Source of the DNA: a virus
UHGV virus genome: UHGV-0342795
Direction: 5' to 3' (one strand)
DNA length: 43,959 bases
This document shows, in pieces, positions 4,140-22,315 of the stretch (positions within the stretch are counted from its first letter, which is position 1; the number at the start of each line of letters is the position of its first letter). The translations under genes and the position numbers were made by a program. The notes beneath the pieces are model-generated. The model worked only from the letters and a program-made list of their open reading frames with translations. It made no database searches and had not been told where the DNA came from.

Positions 4140-5411
4140 TTACTTAGAGCTCGCTTCCATCAGACTCAGGACTTCAATGAGAGGCCAATGGCCCTTGTAG
4201 TCCGTCTTATAGGGCTGGTCATAAATGACCTTGCGCACCCCAAGGTGGTTGAGAAGCTTCAGGCATGCGTCGCATGGCCCATGCGTCACGTACACTACAG
4301 CGTTGCTCCAGTCTGAGAATCCGTTCTGGAGAGCCTTTATGCAAGCCCTCATTTCAGCGTGAACGGAGTAGCAACCGTCGCTGTAGAACACTTCCTTTTT
4401 GTCCCTTGCGCATTCAGTGCAAGCCTCCCCGTCCCGGTCTCCGTACCCCGTTGCGATGACTTCTCCACGTGAGATAATCACAGCCCCACACTTCTTTTTT
4501 AAGCAACGGGACTGCTTGGAGGCCTCCCATGCCACGTTCATATTCAGATTATGATTGCGCCAATCGAATAACCCGATAAAACGTTGCACAAAAGCTCCAA
4601 TTGTCAAACGCTGAATAGCGGCTTGGGGGCACGACACCAACGGCTGTGCAACATCAAGGTTCTCGTTGGTGAATCTCTTTTCGCAATCCCTGAACTTGTC
4701 AAACGCCCATTCATAGAAGTGCAAGTTGAGGGCTTGATGGATGTGATAGCCTAATCCAAGGTTAGGATACGTTCTTTTAAGCATTGCGAGCGCAGTGTAA
4801 TGCACGACCCTGAAGAAAGGCAAGTCATACGGCAGACCGTACCAAAGGTCATTGGATCGCATGATGACTTGCATGTTGAGCGCATCACCTTGAATGTACA
4901 GGTTGATGATCAATGTGCAAGGATTATCGTTGCTGATGTAGGCATGTTCCTTGGAGTACAGCGTCATCACAGCCTTTTTGGAATCAGGGTTGTTACGCAA
5001 GCAATTGATTGCGTGCTCGAACTGAGTAAAACCATGCTTATTCTCGTCATGGAACAGAAGGAACCCATAGTTGCTGTTGATGGTTTTTCCGTCGTCGGAG
5101 CACTTGCTCCAGAACTTGCTCATCTTTACAGCGTCTTCCAATTGACGAGATCCGCTCGCGTAAAAGTCCAGTTCCTTCTCAAGGTACTCCTGAGAGGGAT
5201 ACCGTCCAAGGCAATACGTAGAAGCCTCCGGGTCGAGCACCAACGTTACGTTGCGCATTTCGTAGAGCCCTTGACCCTTGCGGTTAACAGTGTGCCGACC
5301 GTTCTTATGGATGTAATAGAAGATATCCAAGAAAGGCACGCACTGTCCTTTCTTTACGTTAAAGGTAGTGAACACAGGGTATTCGTTAGTTCCAAGTTGA
5401 GGGGTATCCAT
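4140..5411 (-). CDS. Fusion protein with an N-terminal thymidylate-synthase-fold domain (pyrimidine C5-modifying enzyme, Asp at the TS Asn177 position) and a C-terminal dCMP/cytidine-deaminase domain
   Basis: The TS core aligns without gaps to E. coli ThyA 144-181. NPCTLIINLYIQGDALNMQVIMRSNDLWYGLPYDLPFF aligns with [38 protein letters not shown], conserving the catalytic Cys, R166, S167 and D169, with D in place of N177. The C-terminal 120 aa carry the CDA zinc motifs HAEMRA and PCDAC (VVYVTHGPCDACLKLL). AAAGGA lies upstream of the ATG. Confidence 0.8.
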   Translation of the reverse strand: MDTPQLGTNEYPVFTTFNVKKGQCVPFLDIFYYIHKNGRHTVNRKGQGLYEMRNVTLVLDPEASTYCLGRYPSQEYLEKELDFYASGSRQLEDAVKMSKFWSKCSDDGKTINSNYGFLLFHDENKHGFTQFEHAINCLRNNPDSKKAVMTLYSKEHAYISNDNPCTLIINLYIQGDALNMQVIMRSNDLWYGLPYDLPFFRVVHYTALAMLKRTYPNLGLGYHIHQALNLHFYEWAFDKFRDCEKRFTNENLDVAQPLVSCPQAAIQRLTIGAFVQRFIGLFDWRNHNLNMNVAWEASKQSRCLKKKCGAVIISRGEVIATGYGDRDGEACTECARDKKEVFYSDGCYSVHAEMRACIKALQNGFSDWSNAVVYVTHGPCDACLKLLNHLGVRKVIYDQPYKTDYKGHWPLIEVLSLMEASSK

Positions 5412-9560: not shown

Positions 9561-10337
9561 CTAGAACGTAGCTCCGCCGGGGGTAACATCAATGGCTTCA
9601 GATGCGTCACCCGCTTCCAGCGCAGTGAAGTCTAGACGCTGTTCGGGAGTGGGCAACGCCTTGCGTTCCTCAGTGACAAGCTGAAGCGTTTCCTTGCCGA
9701 CGAACCCTGCGAACTCCACATGCAGACCAGCCCACGAGCCCTGATCGTTGCTCATGGGAACCGTGGTCAGTGTCCACTTCATGAAGTAGGGAAGAGCCTT
9801 ACGTCCAGTTCCCGGGATGAACGTGCTGGTCAGCAAGCGGTTCCACCTACGGGCTTCCTTCAGTTGCGTGGAGGACAAGCAGAGAAGGCAGATACCGTCT
9901 TCGATGTAGTCCGGGAACACGATGTAGTATGTGTACGTATCAACGAACTCGTTTCCTGTTCTGGAGATGAGCTTGTTCTTTTCGTTGCGGTGAAGCTCCC
10001 CAGTGGCCTCCATCTGAGCGACAATCTCAGGGGCATGCGCCTGAACGAAACCGCCGCGATTGGGCTTCCATTCGATAAAGTAACGGTCGAACCGTCCCAC
10101 CACAACGTCAACCGGGGGCTCAATGACCCTGTTGTTGATGTTGTTCAGGAACATGCCTTCTTCCGCGCCGGGGATATGGTTAGGATCAGTGCGCTTGCAT
10201 TGCGGGGACAGGCTCTGCAGAATGCGAATGAACGGGAACGCAACAACGTCAGCGGAAAGGCTTTCAAAGCCTCCCAGTCCGTCGTCGAAGAGATGGGAAT
10301 AGTCCTCAGCCTGATTCTGCATGGTTTCCTTGGTCAT
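9561..10337 (-). CDS. Hypothetical protein (258 aa)
   Basis: The ATG is preceded by AGGAGA. It is acidic and aromatic-rich, and no motif was recognised. It follows two nucleases, so it could be a recombination partner such as an SSAP, but that is speculative. Confidence 0.5.
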   Translation of the reverse strand: MTKETMQNQAEDYSHLFDDGLGGFESLSADVVAFPFIRILQSLSPQCKRTDPNHIPGAEEGMFLNNINNRVIEPPVDVVVGRFDRYFIEWKPNRGGFVQAHAPEIVAQMEATGELHRNEKNKLISRTGNEFVDTYTYYIVFPDYIEDGICLLCLSSTQLKEARRWNRLLTSTFIPGTGRKALPYFMKWTLTTVPMSNDQGSWAGLHVEFAGFVGKETLQLVTEERKALPTPEQRLDFTALEAGDASEAIDVTPGGATF

Positions 10338-10353: not shown

Positions 10354-10860
10354 TTAGCCTATGATGAACTTTTCATAGTCGGTTTTGTCGAAAGCACCGC
10401 CAGCCTGAACAGCAAGGTAGTGAGGCCCGAGTTGTGTAAGGTGGTCGACCACGTCCTGGAAGTATTGGCTATGCCCTTCTTCCTCGACAATGATCTTTTT
10501 CAGAAGCTGAGCCGACACGTGGTCAATCTCGCTCAGTTTCTGAATGTACTCGTTGTACTTGAATACCGTGTCCCGCTCGAGATCAGCGTCGGTTGCGAAA
10601 ACAACCATAGGCTCCTGATTGGTGTCCACGTTCTGAGCCGGGGCAACGATAGGAATGCCGCCGAGTTCACGAATACGCTCGCTGAGCATCTCAGCATGGC
10701 GCATTTCCGAAATGGCGATTTTCTTTACGGCCTTGGCAAACGTAGGGAACATGAGGTTGTCAAGGGCATAGTGGTGTTGCATGTACTGACCGATGGCGAC
10801 AAGCTCCATCGATCTGGCCAGATTCAGAATGTCTATAGATTCTTGAGGGTTCAAAGACAT
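10354..10860 (-). CDS. bfr: Bacterioferritin (Bfr-like ferritin-fold di-iron protein)
   Basis: It aligns to bacterioferritin. The segments ELVAIGQYMQHHY, AISEMRHAE and EEEGHSQYF supply the ferroxidase ligands (E18, E51, H54, ... E127, H130 equivalents) and the heme-ligand Met at position 52. AAGGAG lies upstream of the ATG. Length is 168 aa. Confidence 0.8.
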   Translation of the reverse strand: MSLNPQESIDILNLARSMELVAIGQYMQHHYALDNLMFPTFAKAVKKIAISEMRHAEMLSERIRELGGIPIVAPAQNVDTNQEPMVVFATDADLERDTVFKYNEYIQKLSEIDHVSAQLLKKIIVEEEGHSQYFQDVVDHLTQLGPHYLAVQAGGAFDKTDYEKFIIG

Positions 10861-14416: not shown

Positions 14417-15193
14417 TCACTTACGGAACTGCGAAAACCGGATAGTTACGTCCTTATACATGCGTCCCGTGAGCGGATTGGTTTTGTCCTTGAGCATAAC
14501 ACAAGACGGGAACTTGTTGCGTAACAGCACCGCCGCCTTAACCCGAAGGTCATCGTCACGGTAAAGGTTACAACCTGAGTTCGTACCCGCTCCAAGTTGA
14601 TCGTCAGCAGTGAACAGGTTCAGCGTAGCCGTCCTGTAGCCAGCCTTCATCAGTTGGAGTTGCATGTGAAAGTCCTCAAGGATGTCCCCTTCCCATTCGT
14701 AACGGAAGCCTTCTCCCGACAGCGTGGGCAGGTGCAGGACTGGCGTCCACATGATGCGCTTGTTAATGCCCCACGTCTTTGTTTCAGTGTGGGCGAACAT
14801 GCGATGACGCAAGCCTATCATGGGGAACTCCGAACTTACGTTTTCGAACACAGGTCTAAGCGCGTTGTCTATGCTGACGGGATGGAGCTTTTCGAGCTTG
14901 TTGCCGTTGCGATAGGCAAACGCCAGATCGTCATCGAAGATGCCGAGCTTTTCAACGTCCCGAACGTAAGCCTCTTCCATGATGATGTCCCGAATGCGAG
15001 ACACCTTGTTAGCAGTATGCAACATGAGCCTTACGTTGAACGCTTTAGCTACAGGCTTGTACGCTTCAGCTTCATCCTTGTGCACCCAAAGGGATACAGG
15101 GTAATGAGAATGCTGGAGCCACGTGAGCGTCAGTTGCCTGTTCAGCAGAACGTCTGCCCTTCCCCGGCTCAGTACGGCGAGTTCATACTTCAT
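14417..15193 (-). CDS. GT-A fold (GT2-like) glycosyltransferase, soluble
   Basis: An Asp-rich DxD-like segment (LGIFDDDLAF) lies at about residue 90. WEGDILEDFHMQLQLMKAGYRTATL matches the GT2 'ED.D..LRL..AGY+' catalytic-loop motif. AGGAGA lies upstream of the ATG, and no TM segments are seen. Confidence 0.5.
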   Translation of the reverse strand: MKYELAVLSRGRADVLLNRQLTLTWLQHSHYPVSLWVHKDEAEAYKPVAKAFNVRLMLHTANKVSRIRDIIMEEAYVRDVEKLGIFDDDLAFAYRNGNKLEKLHPVSIDNALRPVFENVSSEFPMIGLRHRMFAHTETKTWGINKRIMWTPVLHLPTLSGEGFRYEWEGDILEDFHMQLQLMKAGYRTATLNLFTADDQLGAGTNSGCNLYRDDDLRVKAAVLLRNKFPSCVMLKDKTNPLTGRMYKDVTIRFSQFRK

Positions 15194-15201
15194 ATCGTCT
15201 C

Positions 15202-16455
15202 CTAGAACATTTGACTTTCAATGAAACTGCGACGCATGGTGCATTCATAAGCCGTCTTGTCATGGCGGAAGCCTGTTACCCAGTTCGCCTTGGCATGATA
15301 AATGCGCTGGTTCCTTGCGCTGATATCCTGACCGTCAATGGTAAGGACTTGCCCGTAAAACTCAGTCTTGAGTGCGGGCTTGCCGTCCCGTACTTCACTG
15401 AGAGCCATACGCGTTTGCAATGGAATGCCGCTCACGGTAGCCAGCCAATGGACTCCAAGCTGTTCATTGTTGTCTCCCAACAAATAAACGCCGAGTGTGA
15501 TGCCAGCAATGAGCCCCGCCTTATCCCATTCACCGCCGTTGGTGTAGCCTATGACGAATGCGTCAATGTCTGTCTGACTAGCCATGGACATACTCCTCTT
15601 CAGTTTGATGGTGGAGTTCTTGTCACGGAAGTTGCCAATAGCCGGAATGTAGAACGAGCTCAGGTTCTTGAGAACTACACCTTCCTCACCGTTGGCAACC
15701 AGTGATTCAAAGTAGGTCTTCTTGCCCCGCTCCCATTGCTTGGGAAGGCGTACGGAACGATCGAGCATGGGCATGCCTTGCATGAGCTCAAGCCTTTCCC
15801 TGAAGGGAATCTCCGTGATGATCTTCTCACGTTCAATGGGAAGGAAGTCGAACGCCACCAGCTCCATGGGAGCCGTAGTGCGTTGCGCAAGGTGGCTGTC
15901 ATGCACGTTAAGCTGAAGCATAGACGTTACAGCGTTCAAGCCCTTCCCGGTGAAGTTGCCGTCATTGAGCTCCACGAACCCGTCAGTGACCAGTTCGCAG
16001 TCCAATATGAACTCTTCCTTCCAATGACCAGCGAACTCCTTGAGCGTGCTCAGCTTGCCGTTGAGCGGAACAAGAAGCTTTTCAGTGTACTCCACCGGAA
16101 GCAGGGTAACAGTCGAGCGATTACGCCCAAAGGCTGAAAAGCCCTCATCGGGATGGTAGACCAGAACCATGCGGCAACCATCGAACTTCTCTTCGGCTAC
16201 CCAACCATTGCCGTCGGAAATGACGGCCTCCTGCTCGTCCTGCTTGAGCTGGTCATAACGGTAAGCCAACTGAACGTCATGCAACTGATCACGCATGACG
16301 CGACCGAAGGTGATCTCCCGCTGTTCACGATAGTGTTCAGCGATGACCGCCTCCAAGTCCCTGTTCAGGATCTTGCCGTTCTTACCCGTCCCTTCATACG
16401 GAACACGCAATCCGAGCTCTTCGATTCTGTTGCACAACTGCGTAAACGTAGCCAT
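15202..16455 (-). CDS. ATP-dependent DNA ligase
   Basis: Nucleotidyltransferase motif I (KxDG) is AEEKFDGCRMVLVY. Motif IV/V-like EGVVLK is present. The start is taken at the ATG 16455-16453, which has GGAGG upstream. The ORF track's start is a TTG four codons earlier. The ATG overlaps the upstream stop as TAATG. Confidence 0.85.
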   Translation of the reverse strand: MATFTQLCNRIEELGLRVPYEGTGKNGKILNRDLEAVIAEHYREQREITFGRVMRDQLHDVQLAYRYDQLKQDEQEAVISDGNGWVAEEKFDGCRMVLVYHPDEGFSAFGRNRSTVTLLPVEYTEKLLVPLNGKLSTLKEFAGHWKEEFILDCELVTDGFVELNDGNFTGKGLNAVTSMLQLNVHDSHLAQRTTAPMELVAFDFLPIEREKIITEIPFRERLELMQGMPMLDRSVRLPKQWERGKKTYFESLVANGEEGVVLKNLSSFYIPAIGNFRDKNSTIKLKRSMSMASQTDIDAFVIGYTNGGEWDKAGLIAGITLGVYLLGDNNEQLGVHWLATVSGIPLQTRMALSEVRDGKPALKTEFYGQVLTIDGQDISARNQRIYHAKANWVTGFRHDKTAYECTMRRSFIESQMF

Positions 16456-17396
16456 TAGAACCTCCAAGCACTCGGAATGTAAGGTTGCTCCAAGGGAGAG
16501 AGGATGCGACTGAAGTTGTTCTTAATGCTCTTGCCGTCATCACGCACCCGACAATACTTGTCGTATTCGCAGAACAGGTTCTGCATGTCATTGCCACGGA
16601 GTGGGAACTCCTTGCCGTCTACAGTGAGGACAGGGAAGGACGGAATGCCGTTAATCGCAAGCCGCTTGAGCACGCTAGGCAGTTCAATCAGCTTAAGATG
16701 AGGCCAAACCCGTCTCATCCCGCGCTGGCACCCAATCCCCGGAACGATGAACTTCTCGTAGTCAAACATTAAATGGTTGTAAGAGAAGTCCAAAGCGAAC
16801 TGGTAAGCCAAGAAGTCCCCAAACCCCTCATGACGGCGGAAGATTGCGTAGGTGTAGCTCATGTCTGAAGAGTTGTAAGCCCTCTCCAGATCACCGCTGT
16901 CTTCCATGTGCTTCAGCGTCCTGAGGAACAGCTCCGTCCTTGTGGTGCAACCGAACGTCCACGGCGGAGTCATCATGTAAGCGTTGTTGTATACCGTAAC
17001 CCCGCAAGCGCGACGTGCTTCAACGAAGCTCTCAATGGCAGGAAGCGCGTTGTACGCATCGTACTTGTAATCCGGAAGGGATTCCCATGTCTCAATGCTG
17101 TTGAACAACCTGAACAGGAACATGCCCATGCGATGAGCGCGAGGGAGCTCAAAGCAATTCGCCTTGTCGTCAATGATGTTCTTCGCCATGTACTGCGAAA
17201 CACGATCAAGGATTCGGTAGGCGTTGGTGAACTTCCACTTGTCAAGGATAGGATCCTCGGACACCAGCGCAGTCCCATTGACACGTGCGAGGAACCGCTC
17301 TTGCCTACGAATAGCGAACCCGTAAAAGTCCACCAGTCGCTTACTGGTAGGCAGGTGCGGAGCCACCGGAAGGTCGTTAGCCTTGAACCAATCCAT
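16455..17396 (-). CDS. Hypothetical protein (313 aa), no recognised motif
   Basis: The start is taken at the ATG 17396 (AAAGGA upstream); the track start is a TTG. Conserved-looking segments are KWKFTNAYRILDR and HEGFGDFLAYQFALDF. It is embedded between the ligase and the HD hydrolase. Confidence 0.55.
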   Translation of the reverse strand: MDWFKANDLPVAPHLPTSKRLVDFYGFAIRRQERFLARVNGTALVSEDPILDKWKFTNAYRILDRVSQYMAKNIIDDKANCFELPRAHRMGMFLFRLFNSIETWESLPDYKYDAYNALPAIESFVEARRACGVTVYNNAYMMTPPWTFGCTTRTELFLRTLKHMEDSGDLERAYNSSDMSYTYAIFRRHEGFGDFLAYQFALDFSYNHLMFDYEKFIVPGIGCQRGMRRVWPHLKLIELPSVLKRLAINGIPSFPVLTVDGKEFPLRGNDMQNLFCEYDKYCRVRDDGKSIKNNFSRILSPLEQPYIPSAWRF

Positions 17397-17398
17397 GC

Positions 17399-18055
17399 TC
17401 AATCCTTTATGTTAAGCTCTTCGAACGCCTCGAAGAGGTTGGTGTACACCATGTCATCGGACATGGGATTCAACAAGGAGTAGACCCGCTTGTCATACTG
17501 GGACGCATCCCACTCGGGCTCACCAAAGAAGAACGAGCACTCCATGAAGCCAAGCGCGTCATCCGCCTTCGTAACAGCCAGATCAGGTGTCGCGTTGTAC
17601 TTGTCAAAGATCGCACGCTGAATCCTGTCTTCGCACTGAAGATACTCATAAGCGCACTTGAACGCCTCCCGGTTGCCTTCCTCAGCGACGTCCATGTATA
17701 CCTTGACAGCTCGTCTCACCGCCGTAACAATGTGGTTCTTCATGGGACGGATGATGTCCCCTGTGTACGCCTCCACCGCGTCATGCAACAGAACGGCTCT
17801 CAGGATGTCCGGAGCGGTGATACCTATGACATGCTTGGCATACGCCAGCGTAGCCAATGAATGCTGCCCCACACTATAATGGTAGGGGGTCGCGCCGTTG
17901 AAACGGCAGATGTGCGACAAGCTGTTGGCAATGTGCGCAAGGCTCAGGTTCGGTCCAAAGATCGCGTTCTCCGGATCATGGGTAGGCAAAGCCCAAAGGT
18001 TGAGTCTTACGCGTTCAGTTGTAAAGACACCGGGATAACAAGGTTGCTGGCTCAT
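17399..18055 (-). CDS. HD-domain phosphohydrolase (YfbR-like 5'-deoxynucleotidase family)
   Basis: The H...HD...D motif is H(SLATLAYAK)H ... LLHDAVEAYTGD. AGGAGA lies upstream of the ATG. Confidence 0.75.
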   Translation of the reverse strand: MSQQPCYPGVFTTERVRLNLWALPTHDPENAIFGPNLSLAHIANSLSHICRFNGATPYHYSVGQHSLATLAYAKHVIGITAPDILRAVLLHDAVEAYTGDIIRPMKNHIVTAVRRAVKVYMDVAEEGNREAFKCAYEYLQCEDRIQRAIFDKYNATPDLAVTKADDALGFMECSFFFGEPEWDASQYDKRVYSLLNPMSDDMVYTNLFEAFEELNIKD

Positions 18056-18561
18056 TTGCGTCTCCTAATTGCGATTTCTAACAGCACCTGTTGCGAGATT
18101 TCAAGTGCCGCTGTCAGCATAACCTTCGCTCTGGAAGGGTTCAATGCCAACATGTTGATGAAATTGTGTCCAGTTTTGAATATGATACTCAGTCGTTTTG
18201 GGTCATAGTCAAAGTCCTCTGGACAGTTGTCCTTGGGGCAGTCTGGCGAGAAGCAAGTGCGAGCGGGACACGTCACGTGAGGAAGTTCCAAGTACGCAAG
18301 GATCACGCTCACTGGCATGTTCGTGCTGAACAACCAAAGGATCTTACGTGCTTGATTGGCTGTACGAGCCTTGGAAAGGCAGTTGGTCAGGTGACCTTCT
18401 CGTATGCAAGCCTCCTGATACCGTCGCTTCTCAGCTCGTTTGGCGTCGCCTTCAACCTTCCCTACAAGACGTGCCATGCGTCTCCTGTCCTCTACTTCAA
18501 GGACTGCGGTTCCGGCTTTTGCAGGTGTAGTTTTGCGCTTCACGGCCTTTCGGGAAATCAT
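18052..18561 (-). CDS. Basic protein with a C-x4-C-x4-C-x4-C cluster (about 169 aa), first gene of the leftward operon
   Basis: The start is taken at the ATG 18561-18559, which has GGAGG upstream (the track start is a TTG). The N-terminus is Lys/Arg-rich. The cluster is TCPARTCFSPDCPKDNCPE. Confidence 0.5.
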   Translation of the reverse strand: MISRKAVKRKTTPAKAGTAVLEVEDRRRMARLVGKVEGDAKRAEKRRYQEACIREGHLTNCLSKARTANQARKILWLFSTNMPVSVILAYLELPHVTCPARTCFSPDCPKDNCPEDFDYDPKRLSIIFKTGHNFINMLALNPSRAKVMLTAALEISQQVLLEIAIRRRK

Positions 18562-18744
18562 AAAATGCCTCCTCAACTGATCAGGGCTTCTGGATTTTGG
18601 CCTTTGTGTGTAGTTTCACCTCCTGACGAGTTTTCGCAAAATTTCGAGGTAAGTTGTGCGATTTCAGTCGGTTACAACAAGCATCCAATCCGCGACTGCT
18701 AGGTACGGCAAATGCAGTGGATTTGGTGCGGTTGCGCTGAATTG

Positions 18745-18773
18745 TAAATGCACCAAAACGCACAAAAAAGCAA
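18745..18773 (-). promoter_or_regulatory. Leftward promoter (copy 3 of the phage promoter family, TTGCTT-N17-CATTTA)
   Basis: The minus-strand sequence reads aaaTGCTTGCTTTtttgtgcgttttGGTGCATTTAcaat. The -35 is 18773-18768 and the -10 is 18750-18745. It shares the extended consensus TGCTTGCTTT-N14-GGTGCAT with the two rightward copies. Confidence 0.5.
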
Positions 18774-18848
18774 GCATTTTCTTTCTCCTACAAGTTCAAT
18801 GGGTTACGCTGCGCAGGGATACCAATCCAGTTCTAGTCGGCTTCCCGT

Positions 18849-18868
18849 CAAAATTCCGATTTTGATTT
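18849..18868. repeat. 20-bp element caaaattccgattttgattt (copy 1) containing the palindrome CAAAAT-tccg-ATTTTG
   Basis: An identical 20-mer recurs at 19088-19107. Confidence 0.6.
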
Positions 18869-19087
18869 GTTCAATGGTTTTGCACGCTTACTTGTTTTTT
18901 TCCGCCTTGAAAAAAATCCGCCAGCTCCGCGTACAGTCAATTATTCCAGTGGGTTGCGGTTCAGAAACAGAAGGTTACATGACACTTCCGGAGCATTTCC
19001 CCTCTGTAATAAATTTTCAGAATCTTCACGTGAAAAAAGGATTGGTATCACATGCGCATGAAATCCATGCGTTATGGATACCGAGTA

Positions 19088-19107
19088 CAAAATTCCGATT
19101 TTGATTT
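19088..19107. repeat. 20-bp element caaaattccgattttgattt (copy 2)
   Basis: It is a direct repeat of 18849-18868, 239 bp away. Confidence 0.6.
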
Positions 19108-19128
19108 TCCCCCCGGAAAACGTAAAAG

Positions 19129-19142
19129 CTATTATATAATAG
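19129..19142. promoter_or_regulatory. Perfect 14-bp palindrome CTATTATATAATAG (contains TATAAT on both strands)
   Basis: It is self-complementary over all 14 nt. It lies in the non-coding control region. Confidence 0.4.
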
Positions 19143-19692
19143 TTGGGGATCTTCAATGATTTCGAGGGGTTTACTGTTTTCCGCTGATTTTACACTGACT
19201 CGGAAAAAAGGTGGGAAAGTACATTTTTTCGAGAAGCCCTGACGGACTGAACTCTCATCTCTTCAATCCAGATCTCGAAAAACAGTGGGGTTTTTGGTCA
19301 ACTCGCCCCGGTTCAGATAGATTAAGCTCTGGAAAATCCTAAAGCAAATCCGGTTCTTTCGGGATGAATCTTAAAAATCTGTCGGGGTGTTTAATCCATT
19401 GAACCCAAACCGCGAAGGGCGGAGCCATTGACCCTCCGCCGCCCACGTTGCGCCTTGCCGCCTCCCTACCATTAAAAAGGGACGCTCCGGAACCGTCCTG
19501 TCCCACGTCACGGGAGCGTGGGGCAGTCGAATGCACCCGCCCCCGCCGGGGGTCAAACGGCGTTCCGGCGTCGCCAGGTCAAGCTGTCCGTTGGAGCCAG
19601 CCGGAACCGCTTCCGCAAGTCCTACGATTGAAACGAAAAGTTGAAGCCTGAAAACTTTTTTGGAAAAAGTCCCAAAAATCCGAAAAAAGTGC

Positions 19693-19721
19693 TTGCTTTC
19701 TGTCTCGGAATCCGGCATAGT
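19693..19721 (+). promoter_or_regulatory. Rightward promoter P1 (TTGCTT-N17-CATAGT) with upstream A-tract (UP-like) region
   Basis: The sequence is aagTGCTTGCTTTctgtctcggaatccGGCATAGTgtc. The -35 is 19693-19698 and the -10 is 19716-19721. Phased A-tracts lie at 19640-19690. The first rightward gene starts 118 nt downstream. Confidence 0.5.
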
Positions 19722-19838
19722 GTCTTCAACGGGAGGGACGGTTCCACCACGGTGGAAAGGAAGGCCGCCCTCGTGTAGGTGCAGTATTGCGCCGGGGCGG
19801 AGGGCCTCCCGTCAAAACTACCTTTTAAGGAGACGCAC

Positions 19839-20450
19839 ATGAGTCAGACTGTTGCCCCCGCTTCCCGTCGTTCTCGTCGTACCCCCGTTGAACCTGTAAC
19901 CGCTCAGGAGAGCCCCATGTCCCAGATCGTCGTTGAAGACCTGACCGCTGAATCCGTTGCCCCCGTCACCTCCGCTGAACCCGAAACGACTGCCCCGAAG
20001 CGTGAAGTTTCCGAAGCGGCGAAGGCCGCTCTGAAGGAATACCAGGAAGCCTCTAAGAAGGCGAAGGCGTTCCTCGCTGAGGTGATCCTCGGCAAGCACC
20101 CCCAGCTCGTGCTCCCGAACGAAGTCCTGGAAGCGATTCGCGTTCTGGTTCCCATTCGCAATGCCAAGCAGGGTCATGCCGCTCCCCGGAACGCCAAGCA
20201 GCAGGTTCTGGACAAGCTCCTCGATCTGTTCATGGCGAACGACGGCAAGGTCACGCTGATGCAGGTGTTCAAGGAGTTCCGCATGGGTGAAGGCGAAATG
20301 CGCGTCCGCATGCGCAACGCGATCCACGACCGCAAGCCCGAAGAGCGCATGTGGATCACCTATGACTCGGATACCGAGACCTACACCTTGGAAGAGGTTG
20401 GCGTGAACCCACCCGCCGGATGGACTGGCACTCTTCCCAAGAACAAGTAA
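19839..20450 (+). CDS. Hypothetical protein (203 aa), highly GC-rich gene with a low-complexity N-terminus
   Basis: The ATG at 19839 is preceded by AAGGAGA. The N-terminal 60 aa are rich in Pro/Ala/Ser/Thr/Glu. The C-terminal approximately 130 aa are helical (RNAKQ repeated). GC is clearly higher than in neighbouring genes. A hairpin terminator follows. Confidence 0.6.
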   Translation: MSQTVAPASRRSRRTPVEPVTAQESPMSQIVVEDLTAESVAPVTSAEPETTAPKREVSEAAKAALKEYQEASKKAKAFLAEVILGKHPQLVLPNEVLEAIRVLVPIRNAKQGHAAPRNAKQQVLDKLLDLFMANDGKVTLMQVFKEFRMGEGEMRVRMRNAIHDRKPEERMWITYDSDTETYTLEEVGVNPPAGWTGTLPKNK

Positions 20451-20479
20451 ATCTCCTGTCTAACCCTAACCACTTCCCT

Positions 20480-20511
20480 AAAAGCCCCATGTGTACCTGC
20501 ATGGGGCTTTT
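20480..20511 (+). terminator. Rho-independent terminator
   Basis: A perfect 12-bp stem (aaaagccccatg with catggggctttt) has an 8-nt loop and is followed by a T-rich tract. It lies 30 nt after the stop at 20450. Confidence 0.65.
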
Positions 20512-20617
20512 CTTATGTGTAAGGACGCAAACAGCGCAAACCGTTGGAATTGTACAAGTTACTCCAAATTGCGATTCTGAGCGTCTTTTGCAGGGCAACG
20601 TAAGCCCATGCCTACCC

Positions 20618-20709
20618 CTGCCCCGGTTTGCCCGCCCCGTGCCGCTCCCTGCCCCGGCAAAGGGCAAATTCCTGCCCCGTCCCGCCCTGCCCCGTCCCGC
20701 CCTGCCCCC
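20618..20709. repeat. GC-rich iterons, five copies of CTGCCCC(G/C) including a perfect tandem 15-mer CCTGCCCCGTCCCGC x2
   Basis: Copies lie at 20618-25, 20649-56, 20672-79, 20687-94 and 20702-09. The tandem 15-mers are 20671-85 and 20686-700. The array lies immediately upstream of the -35 of promoter P2. Confidence 0.55.
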
Positions 20710-20719
20710 AACAAAATGC

Positions 20720-20748
20720 TTGCTTTTCCGCTCGGAATGGTGCATAAT
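20720..20748 (+). promoter_or_regulatory. Rightward promoter P2 (TTGCTT-N17-CATAAT)
   Basis: The sequence is aaaTGCTTGCTTTtccgctcggaatggTGCATAATggt. It shares the -35, the spacer motif ctcggaat and the -10 context with P1. The downstream ATG lies only 7-8 nt after the -10, so the transcript could be leaderless. Confidence 0.5.
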
Positions 20749-20755
20749 GGTTTCT

Positions 20756-21346
20756 ATGAAAGAATCCCGCGATCTTAATGCTCTCTTCTCTTGGCTCGAG
20801 AACCAGAGCAACTCATCTATAGCCGAGAACCTCTACAACCTATTGTATGAGGGCGGACTTACCGACGCTGAGAAGGAGTACGTCTATTCGATTGCTAATC
20901 GCAAGAGAGCGACGAACTCCACGCTCAGCGATGATGATATATTGACTGATGAGTTCCTTGAGATGTATGCTGAGTATCGTTCCCTTGGCTTGTCAAGCGA
21001 AGACGCTGCAGGACTCATTGGAATTTCTTCGGAGCGGATGAAGAGTCTGTTGCTTGGAGGAAACGTTCAGGACAGGCGTCGTCACGCTGAACTTCTCAAG
21101 ATTGAACGCAGGTCGGATCTTATCCTTAAGAAGACGTGCTTGACAACGATCGTGAGAGCGACTGAGAACGGAAATACCAAGACGGCTATGATGTTGCTTG
21201 AACGCAAGTGGCCTTCCGAATGGAGTAGCAAGGACGCTGGAGTCCAGACCAACGTGTTCGTGTCCACTGATGACTACGCTAAGAAGGCGCGTGCCGCGTC
21301 TGAACGCTTGAAGGAACTCAGGAGAATGCGCCGTGAGGAAAATTAA
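20756..21346 (+). CDS. Putative DNA-binding protein, possible small terminase subunit
   Basis: It is the first gene of the late/packaging unit. An HTH-like segment (SSEDAAGLIGISSERMKSLL) is present, with a basic helical C-terminus. The start is taken at the ATG 20756 because the ATG at 20747 lies inside the -10 hexamer. The function call is weak. Confidence 0.4.
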   Translation: MKESRDLNALFSWLENQSNSSIAENLYNLLYEGGLTDAEKEYVYSIANRKRATNSTLSDDDILTDEFLEMYAEYRSLGLSSEDAAGLIGISSERMKSLLLGGNVQDRRRHAELLKIERRSDLILKKTCLTTIVRATENGNTKTAMMLLERKWPSEWSSKDAGVQTNVFVSTDDYAKKARAASERLKELRRMRREEN

Positions 21347-21776
21347 CGATTTAATCGTTCATTGTGCTGCCACGTATGACACGATGGACATTGGCGTGAA
21401 GGAGATCCGTAAGGTTCACGTCGATGAAAACGGATGGAAGGACATTGGTTATCACTTCGTCATTCGTCGTGATGGAACCGTAGAGAAAGGCCGTGACGTG
21501 AGCGTTATCGGAGCCCATGTGCTCAATCACAACGCGAACTCCATTGGGATTTGTTTGGCAGGTGGCCTGAGCAAGAAGGACGGCAAGACTGTTAACTGCG
21601 TGAACTACACTCCTGAACAGTACAAGTCGTTGTATACGCTTTTGCTTAAGCTGAAGTCCGAATATCCTCATGCAGGTCTGCATGGGCATCAGGATTACGC
21701 CAACAAGTTCTGTCCTGGATTCGATGTTCGTGAATGGTGGACAGGCTACACTGGAAAGAAATGGGAGGACGTATGA
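21333..21776 (+). CDS. N-acetylmuramoyl-L-alanine amidase (T7 lysozyme/PGRP-like endolysin)
   Basis: IVHCAAT ... GYHFVIRRDGTV.KGR ... GAHVLNHNANSIGICL matches the Amidase_2 zinc-amidase signature. A GTG start is preceded by AGGAGA. Confidence 0.85.
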   Translation: MRKINDLIVHCAATYDTMDIGVKEIRKVHVDENGWKDIGYHFVIRRDGTVEKGRDVSVIGAHVLNHNANSIGICLAGGLSKKDGKTVNCVNYTPEQYKSLYTLLLKLKSEYPHAGLHGHQDYANKFCPGFDVREWWTGYTGKKWEDV

Positions 21777-22315
21777 AGCCCCTGAGTACGGTAGCGCGCT
21801 GGTTCTATTCGTTCGTGATGTTCTTCGCACTGATTGCCTTTAACGGCATGGCGTCGGGATGCACCAAGGACGAGGTGGCGTTGAACTCCTACAAAGTCCT
21901 TGAGTCTTCCAAGGTAACGTACTACGCGGTCATGCAGAGCGCAAGCGCGATGCACCAACGTGGATCCTTGTCGGACGATAAGTACGGAGAGCTCAAAGAC
22001 GCAGCTCTCATTTACGTTGACTCATATTTGATTGCAGTTTCGGCACTTGCGACTTATGCTGAGCTCAACGAGGCTGACAAGGGCCTCAACAAGGATGACA
22101 AGCGAGCCCTGCTGGAGCAGAAGGTCGATATTGCGACTAAAGGCTTCAACGAGTTCATCAAGAAGGCCATTCAGCTCGGGGTGGACGCGAAGGAGCTGAA
22201 GACGACCGCCATTGCCGACGGGAGTACAGTTCACAAGAACCTGAATACACGGGCGTCTCCGTTTGCTGACCACGTTACAAAGTCATGGATCAACCTTCCG
22301 GTAATGGGGAACTAG
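21773..22315 (+). CDS. Lipoprotein (spanin candidate)
   Basis: The ATG overlaps the amidase stop as ATGA, and GGGAGG lies upstream. There is a signal peptide with a lipobox (...LIAFNGMASGC TKDE). Its position directly after the endolysin fits a spanin. Confidence 0.55.
   Translation: MKPLSTVARWFYSFVMFFALIAFNGMASGCTKDEVALNSYKVLESSKVTYYAVMQSASAMHQRGSLSDDKYGELKDAALIYVDSYLIAVSALATYAELNEADKGLNKDDKRALLEQKVDIATKGFNEFIKKAIQLGVDAKELKTTAIADGSTVHKNLNTRASPFADHVTKSWINLPVMGN

Follow-up and report, generated by a model that had tools for sequence, protein, structure and literature searches.

In the 43,959-nucleotide (nt) viral genome UHGV-0342795, which we analyzed over its whole length (the window), three promoter-like sites named PL, P1, and P2 all sit in the sole divergent intergenic region, and each of them faces genes. 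We propose, with a probability of about 0.72, that these sites are the principal promoters of the phage, that they are of the housekeeping-sigma type and are used by the host holoenzyme without a phage factor, and that the transcript from P2 is leaderless. The whole window appears to be a complete phage genome, circularly permuted, with a single divergent control region. The sites, and the copies of an exact 10-mer that mark them, are as follows.

18745 to 18784, minus strand: PL, AAAGAAAATGC-TTGCTT (18773-18768)-17 nt-CATTTA (18750-18745), from the sequence and the exact 10-mer
19693 to 19721, plus strand: core of P1, TTGCTT (19693-19698)-17 nt-CATAGT (19716-19721), from the exact 10-mer, a weight matrix, and relatives
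20710 to 20748, plus strand: P2, AACAAAATGC-TTGCTT (20720-20725)-17 nt-CATAAT (20743-20748), from the exact 10-mer, the matrix, and relatives
18776 to 18767 (minus strand), 19690 to 19699 (plus strand), and 20717 to 20726 (plus strand): copies of TGCTTGCTTT, from a sequence search

The window has three exact copies of the 10-mer TGCTTGCTTT; dinucleotide shuffles contain 0.12 copies on average and never three, and allowing one mismatch adds a single, unrelated site. GCAT lies downstream of all three copies at an equal distance, and a TTGCTT -35 element, a 17-nt spacer, and a CAnnnn -10 element are common to PL, P1, and P2. A first-pass annotation of this DNA had reported three motif copies at these coordinates, with these hexamers, an exact 17-nt spacing, and the 8-mer ctcggaat in the spacers of both P1 and P2. 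A direct reading of the sequence bears this out, and the 8-mer occupies the same register (-24 to -17) in the two spacers. Its placing of the sites in a divergent control region, facing a replication arm, a GC-rich gene, and a packaging/lysis/structural arm, is likewise supported. The consensus that it wrote down has to be corrected: the string with N14 has no match in the window, and when recounted as N12 it fits P2 exactly but leaves two mismatches in PL and three in P1. Similarly, the proposed GGTGCAT context of the -10 element holds for PL and P2 but not for P1, which reads CCGGCAT.

We compared the control region with those of related phages. Relatives from IMG/VR include close ones at 97 to 98% protein identity and one at 63% (L010); diverged relatives, at 51 to 70% protein identity, come from contigs that carry homologs of gene X, the single gene between the two arms of the genome. 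In the close relatives, all three 10-mers are present wherever a contig covers the site; one of these phages, L008, reads TTGCCT at P1 and has 18 nt in the spacer of PL. Promoter-like sites also stand at homologous places in the diverged lineages, even though the intergenic DNA there does not align. P1 is kept in L010, L013, L017, L011, and L012, while P2 is kept in L010, L013, L017, and L014 and, as TTGTGC-17-TAGGTT, in L011. PL retains its position and orientation in L010 as TTGTTT-17-CACAAC, and L011 has a leftward candidate, TTGCAT-17-CAGGTT. Occurrence in related phages was one of two points on which the first-pass annotation had staked its prediction, and the motif is found there. Thirteen sites, from seven sequences in six divergence tiers, align to the consensus AAAAA(-44 to -40)-N3-C-TTGCtT-T-N15-G-CAtAaT, with conservation by position as follows.

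A at -44 to -40: 10 to 11 of 13 sites
C at -36: 13 of 13
TTG at -35 to -33: 13 of 13
C at -32: 12 of 13
T at -30 and T at -29: 11 of 13 each
T at -17: 11 of 13
G at -13: 12 of 13
C at -12 and A at -11: 13 of 13 each
T at -7: 11 of 13
17-nt spacer: 13 of 13

The spacer length is thus constant despite sequence change and compensated insertions and deletions. We also built a weight matrix from the seven non-window sites only and ranked the sites of the window with it. P1 has the top score (38.5 bits), followed by P2 (31.5 bits), PL (10.8 bits), and the next site (9.3 bits), against a maximum of 14.2 bits in shuffled sequence. P1 and P2 are therefore recovered independently by a matrix made from relatives only, and it finds no further site comparable to PL, P1, and P2 in the 44-kb genome. 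PL is the weakest of the three, below the shuffle maximum; support for it comes from its exact 10-mer and orientation and from the conservation of the site in L010.

This pattern of conservation bears on whether the sites are promoters at all. The copies could instead be non-functional repeats left by recombination or duplication, perhaps in an origin or packaging region; the control region is rich in repeats, among them two copies of a perfect 20-mer and a GC-rich CCCTGCCCCG tract, and contigs of relatives break nearby. We find this explanation barely credible. What the lineages share is limited to the promoter-critical positions and the 17-nt spacing, every site is oriented toward the adjacent gene, the distance of 5 to 7 nt between P2 and the start codon of the small terminase gene is conserved, and the predicted starts are purines that follow a pyrimidine.

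Next, we compared the sites with the features of sigma-70 promoters. TTG opens the -35 element in 13/13 sites, and the hexamer (TTGCTT or TTGCCT) matches TTGACA at three of six positions; the spacer falls within 17 +/- 1 base pairs (bp), being 17 bp in all 13; and A at -11 together with T at -7 is found in P1 and P2, though not in PL. The predicted starts (18738, 19728, and 20756) are each an A after a pyrimidine. An extended -10 element is lacking, since TG at -15/-14 occurs in register in 4 of the 13 sites and in none of the three in the window, PL and P2 having TG at -14/-13. Other classes that we considered were rejected: a sigma-54 promoter, since no GG element lies 10 to 11 bp upstream of TTGC; a sigma-32 promoter, whose CTTGAAA/CCCCATnT pattern is unlike the -10 element here; and an ATGC/GCAT inverted-repeat operator, which is missing from P1.

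The first-pass annotation had taken the conservation beyond the hexamers as a sign of a site for a phage-specific factor. In our alignment, the extra conserved positions are an A-tract together with C-36, T-29, T-17, and G-13. The proximal subsite of the upstream (UP) element reportedly has the consensus AAAAAARNR, a description ascribed to Estrem et al. 1999. An A-tract is expected there at about -46 to -38, and the sites have one at -45 to -40. The conservation beyond the hexamers is mostly this UP-element-like A-tract. In rrnB P1, the critical adenines of this subsite are at -41 to -43 (PMC4390567), and the A-tract of the phage sites covers them.

We then scanned GTDB species genomes for AAAA-N3-CTTGCYTT-N15-GCATART and obtained at least 120 matches from many phyla. 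In 33 of the 120 matches listed, the unspecified positions -15/-14 are TG, compared with about 7.5 expected. Eleven among the matches listed have a tRNA gene 13 to 41 nt downstream in the same orientation; two precede what, by eye, we take to be the controlling inverted repeat of chaperone expression (CIRCE), a heat-shock operator, and four orthologous ones precede a gene that we read as peptidyl-tRNA hydrolase. Judged from these contexts, the extended motif is compatible with what ordinary housekeeping-sigma promoters look like in bacteria without this phage. A phage-specific factor is unneeded, because the extra conservation is mostly an UP-like A-tract and the same pattern stands at real bacterial promoters; the ctcggaat 8-mer, for its part, is not kept at the orthologous promoters. 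The inference of such a factor is therefore unsupported.

A phage-specific promoter class, in which a phage factor is required to read TGCTTGCTTT and GCAT, nevertheless deserves weighing. Candidates for the factor would be the product of gene X, the first protein of the left arm, an unrecognized sigma factor, or a pair like MotA and AsiA. The conserved departure from TTGACA/TATAAT, with C-12 in 13/13 sites, suggests non-standard recognition; gene X, a conserved gene with a putative winged-helix fold, has its own promoter and terminator; and several early proteins have no known function. In addition, the -35 region holds TGCTT, which in T4 forms the core of the MotA box. T4 middle promoters, the best-known case of a phage-specific factor (MotA/AsiA) reading such a motif, share with this phage a TGCTT upstream motif used phage-wide and a sigma-70-type -10 element. 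In T4, the MotA box (TGCTTtA core) lies near -30, 12 +/- 1 bp from the -10 element, and replaces the -35 element. Here, in contrast, TGCTTT ends 15 to 16 bp from the -10 element, the TTG -35 and 17-bp spacer are intact, and the motif is on every promoter, even those that would have to fire first. A Pfam scan of 30 proteins from both arms, most structural genes lying outside it, detected neither a sigma factor or RNA polymerase domain nor one of MotA or AsiA. A MotA-dependent middle promoter class was accordingly rejected on spacing, the intact TTG, and the lack of a MotA or AsiA homolog among the scanned proteins. More generally, all detectable promoters are of one class, so that nothing else is visible to express a factor first, and among the matches listed the same pattern drives tRNA, peptidyl-tRNA hydrolase, and heat-shock genes in bacteria without the phage. 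If one promoter class serves the whole genome, the host polymerase must use it unaided at the start of infection. We therefore regard dependence on a phage factor as very unlikely.

Under the host-type reading that we favor, the host RNA polymerase holoenzyme alone would recognize all three promoters. Region 4 of sigma would read C-TTGCTT at -36 to -30, the alpha C-terminal domains would contact the A-tract at -45 to -40, and region 2 of sigma would open the CAnAnT -10 element after the fixed 17-bp spacer. PL would drive a leftward operon of ~17 kb for replication and thymidine hypermodification with a leader of ~177 nt, and P1 would drive gene X alone, halting at a strong intrinsic terminator. 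P2, 245 nt further on, would produce the late packaging/lysis/structural transcript, headed by a leaderless cistron for the small terminase (terS) and starting at, or at most 1 nt from, the A of the terS ATG. In their bipartite -35/-10 structure, 17-bp spacer, TTG, A-11, and T-7, the sites are like strong sigma-70 promoters with UP elements, such as rrnB P1 of E. coli and the early coliphage promoters T7 A1 and T5 N25, a type that many phages use for recruiting the host polymerase. The likeness extends to the A-tract at about -45 to -40, to which P1 adds phased A-tracts further upstream, and to the proposed capture of host polymerase by a phage without a factor. The sites differ from such promoters in having TTGCTT for TTGACA and, in every copy, C for T at -12, with G at -13, and their polymerase contacts are predicted ones.

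Several observations weigh against this interpretation. The usual housekeeping T at -12 is replaced by C in 13/13 sites, the largest deviation from the textbook pattern, and PL has no T at -7 in either aligned lineage (the window, where CATTTA has A, and L010). Because TTGCTT shares just three of six positions with TTGACA, a standard TTGACA/TATAAT scan overlooks all three sites. The GTDB scan forced the motif, and so shows compatibility with real promoters and not a host consensus. P2, the late promoter, is the best consensus match of all, and a single promoter class offers no obvious basis for early and late timing. Finally, the sharing of ctcggaat by P1 and P2 is unlikely to be chance and may mark a regulator site. 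As for what a standard scan does find, canonical matches are at chance level (14 against 15.9 expected and 11 against 12.0 expected) and lie inside coding open reading frames (ORFs) with one exception, a leftward 9/12 match at 19165-19136 (minus strand) in the PL-P1 intergenic region, for which no counterpart was seen in L010.

TTGCTT, C-12, and G-13 are unusual by textbook standards and may reflect the sigma specificity of the phage's host. A stronger version of this idea is that C-TTGCTT-T ... G-CA, with C-12 in 13/13 sites, marks a dedicated recognition system and not generic sigma-70, which we consider quite unlikely. In such a system, gene X or an unannotated early protein may redirect the polymerase, perhaps as needed for hypermodified thymidines; alternatively, the host primary sigma may have an altered -12/-35 specificity, as in a poorly studied phylum, e.g., Verrucomicrobiota. 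If the latter were true, the motif in the phage would reveal a promoter code of its host that is not yet known.

The shared spacer 8-mer raises a further alternative, in which the promoters are of the host type but ctcggaat at -24 to -17 of P1 and P2 is an operator through which a phage regulator, perhaps gene X, would time or balance expression; the extended conservation inside this lineage would then be regulatory and not a matter of polymerase contact. For two 17-nt spacers to share an 8-mer in one register has a chance probability of ~1.5e-5, the leftward promoter of L010 likewise has CTCGGAA in its spacer, a winged-helix gene lies between the promoters, and promoters so alike need some timing device. 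Yet ctcggaat is missing from PL of the window, is not kept at the orthologous promoters of L013, L017, L012, L011, and L014, and has a different register in L010. The likeness of P1 and P2 could equally come from duplication or gene conversion in one lineage, and a better conserved candidate site exists in AAATTSCGATTYTRA, whose three copies all lie outside the promoters. An operator in the spacer is thus unlikely in our estimation, and we treat ctcggaat as a lineage-specific motif.

The leaderless part of the host-type proposal depends on where terS starts relative to P2.

20756 to 21346, plus strand: terS, small terminase and first gene of the late arm (phrog_4102, E = 6.8e-9)
Distance from the -10 element to the terS ATG: 7 nt in the window, 6 in L010, 7 in L013, 6 in L017, 6 in L014, and 5 in L011 (where the -10 element used is TAGGTT)

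An ATG at 20747 overlaps the -10 element. The first-pass annotation, noting that the -10 element of P2 abuts an ATG, had deduced a leaderless or near-leaderless first late mRNA. The ATG at 20747-20749 is in frame in the lineage of the window and in L013, out of frame in L010 and L014, and absent in L017. As judged from the aligned lineages, it is not the conserved start of terS; the ATG at 20756, 7 nt past the -10 element, is. The start codon is ATG in 6/6 lineages, and the N-terminal protein sequences align from this conserved ATG. It is fixed there because in-frame stops occur upstream at -6 in L011 and at -42 in L017. No Shine-Dalgarno sequence precedes terS, while GGAG, GAGG, or AGGA lies upstream of 24 of 38 other genes. 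A pyrimidine stands before the A of this ATG, and a pyrimidine followed by A is the usual context of a transcription start; leaderless translation requires AUG. Given the 5 to 7 nt between the -10 element and the ATG, the in-frame stops, and the lack of a Shine-Dalgarno sequence, the predicted P2 transcript should start at or within a nucleotide of the terS AUG. The terS mRNA is probably leaderless, beginning directly at its start codon, so the deduction of the earlier annotation stands, with a different ATG, in six lineages.

An ATG at the expected transcription start without a Shine-Dalgarno sequence is also the arrangement of lambda cI transcribed from PRM and of many mycobacteriophage and actinobacterial transcripts, and as with leaderless phage mRNAs, that of terS is evolutionarily conserved. 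Unlike in lambda, the predicted leaderless cistron here is not a repressor but a small terminase heading a late operon of ~24 kb. The system also differs from other leaderless ones in that other genes of the phage carry strong GGAG sites; the host is therefore not generally free of Shine-Dalgarno sequences.

The unit downstream of P1 consists of the following elements.

19650 to 19689, plus strand: UP-element-like phased A-tracts upstream of P1, seen in the sequence and ending in AAAAAAGTG at -45 to -37
19728 to 19838, plus strand: predicted 5' leader of gene X, ~111 nt, GC-rich, with the ribosome-binding site AGGAGAC
19839 to 20450, plus strand: gene X, 203 amino acids, from the ORF and an AlphaFold2 model
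20480 to 20511, plus strand: intrinsic terminator of the P1 unit, a 14-pair stem followed by a T-run

The A-tracts, spaced by roughly one helical turn, are kept ahead of P1 in L010, L013, L011, and L012. Transcription from P1 is predicted to start at A19728. The GC-rich leader folds at -47.1 kcal/mol (z = -1.85 versus shuffles), and a riboswitch or other structured RNA was rejected here: the fold beats shuffles only marginally, the structure is not kept beyond the nearest lineage, and across lineages the ribosome-binding site alone is conserved. Rfam gave no match to the leader. The hairpin at 20480-20511 is the sole strong intrinsic terminator in the control region, and equivalent hairpins follow gene X in L010, L012, L013, and L014. 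With a promoter, leader, and terminator of its own, gene X appears to be a monocistronic unit.

Gene X has no match in Pfam or PHROG. A protein search returned 36 homologs, down to 51% identity and all metagenomic, and the gene is absent from all GTDB species genomes; it has been seen only in this phage group. An AlphaFold2 model built on an 11-sequence alignment predicts a disordered, Arg-rich N terminus and a C-terminal domain of the order H-E-H-H-E-E, with a mean predicted local distance difference test score (pLDDT) of 73 to 87 in 10-residue blocks over residues 121 to 200. The best fold matches in the PDB are winged-helix DNA binders, namely, SSV1 F-112, Z-alpha domains, and the N-terminal domains of IclR, BrxR, and CapW, with E values of 0.009 to ~0.1 and a target TM-score of at most 0.73. 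On the strength of this model, gene X is a plausible candidate for a DNA-binding regulator.

On the other side of the control region, the transcript from PL is predicted to start near 18738.

18562 to 18738, minus strand: 5' leader of the left-arm transcript, ~177 nt, deduced from the position of PL and the first leftward ATG (18561)
18052 to 18561, minus strand: first gene of the left arm, encoding a basic, Cys-rich protein of 169 amino acids, from the ORF and its translation

GAGGAGG precedes the ATG at 18561, and the protein that begins there has no match in Pfam or PHROG. It is followed in the left arm by an HD-domain protein, a 5-hydroxymethyldeoxyuridine (5-hmdU) DNA kinase, an ATP-dependent ligase, a TET-associated glycosyltransferase (TAGT), SNF2 and UvrD helicases, an archaeo-eukaryotic primase (AEP), a thymidylate-synthase/deaminase fusion, and a family A DNA polymerase (PolA). 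The leftward genes are thus the replication and thymidine-hypermodification arm. The hypermodification set, all on the minus strand, comprises a thymidylate-synthase-like/deaminase fusion (4140-5411), the TET-associated glycosyltransferase (14417-15193), the 5-hmdU DNA kinase helical domain (16455-17402), and the HD-domain protein (17399-18055). Because the genome carries these genes, the T residues of the promoters may be modified in virion DNA. The same arm contains a ferritin-like gene at 10354-10860 (minus strand; Pfam Ferritin, E = 1.5e-23); to our knowledge, such genes are not often met in phages. GGAGACG(C/A) recurs as a ribosome-binding context 2 to 4 nt ahead of the ATG in at least five genes of both arms, with ATGs at 19839 (plus strand) and at 10337, 11606, 15193, and 18055 (minus strand).

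The right arm runs from 20756 through terS, an Amidase_2 endolysin, a lipoprotein, membrane proteins, the large terminase, the portal, and further ORFs, and it wraps round the end of the window, a tail assembly chaperone being encoded at 545-1075. The predicted lipoprotein (21773-22315, plus strand) directly follows the endolysin, and its signal peptide ends in the lipobox MASGC. It may be spanin-like, a hint that the host has an outer membrane. At best, the portal shares 30% and the large terminase 40% identity with known proteins, mostly of phages of Proteobacteria. A DNA search of GenBank phages gave just one match, a 150-nt stretch of the amidase, so the phage has no annotated relatives at the DNA level. 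Rfam yielded nothing at the gathering threshold in the whole window and nothing at E <= 1 in the control region, and no tRNA genes were found in the window.

The control region holds other repeated elements. AAATTSCGATTYTRA has three plus-strand copies (18851-18865, 19090-19104, and 20566-20580), all in the control region and none elsewhere in the 44 kb, two of them embedded in the perfect 20-mer CAAAATTCCGATTTTGATTT. L013 and L014 retain it, and L010 and L017 have a degenerate form with a GCGATTTT core. It is a candidate site for a phage regulator or for a replication or packaging protein. The third copy lies past the gene X terminator, inside a conserved block of ~45 nt at 20545-20585 that, together with a variable GC-rich CCCTGCCCCG repeat tract, occupies the stretch from the terminator to P2 (20545-20710). 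Contigs of three independent relatives break at about 20612-20627 (the end of L016 and the starts of L003 and L004), which suggests either that the genome has a physical end (cos/pac) ~130 to 145 nt ahead of terS or that assembly broke at the repeats. Between PL and P1, relatives have lineage-specific direct repeats of their own, such as multiple copies of GAGGTTAGGAA at 590-1270 of L017 and three tandem units of ~33 nt (CTTGACCCCCCC...) at 3590-3690 of L010. These repeats look like iterons and may belong to a replication origin.

Regarding the host, the matches listed from the GTDB scan provide one weak lead. Four of the 11 that precede tRNA genes are from metagenome-assembled genomes of Verrucomicrobiota (L060, L093, L064, and L135); tRNA genes of Kiritimatiellae, Verrucomicrobiia, and Opitutales are preceded by a phage-like pattern, e.g., AAAAAAGTGCTTGCTTT-N15-GCATAAT before a tRNA-Ser gene. 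This weakly points to a verrucomicrobial host, or at least to a promoter dialect of that kind. Another weak lead, to an Oscillospirales host, comes from the likeness between the P2 spacers of the phage lineages and Oscillospirales promoters, with six pairs at 11/15 or better and a permutation fraction of 0.004 that is inflated by orthologous matches. The packaging proteins, nearest to those of Proteobacteria phages, and the lipoprotein of the lysis cassette are further weak pointers. Tetranucleotide similarity to 120 genome fragments gave no host signal, and the literature on the hexamer pair and on Akkermansia phages offered nothing useful.

Overall, the three sites are an ordinary kind of promoter element in a new phage family, and they leave general principles unchanged. 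What they provide for this uncultured family is a near-complete predicted transcription map, with three promoters, one terminator, and two long divergent operons. The family recurs in metagenomes, one cluster of gene X alone having 1,513 member sequences, and the 13-site consensus is usable as a probe for host inference and, given a host, for the design of promoter reporters. The likeness of the promoters raises the question of how early and late genes are timed when all of them are alike. Lastly, the conserved, probably leaderless start of the small terminase gene, at the head of the late operon, makes a clean test case for translation without a leader.

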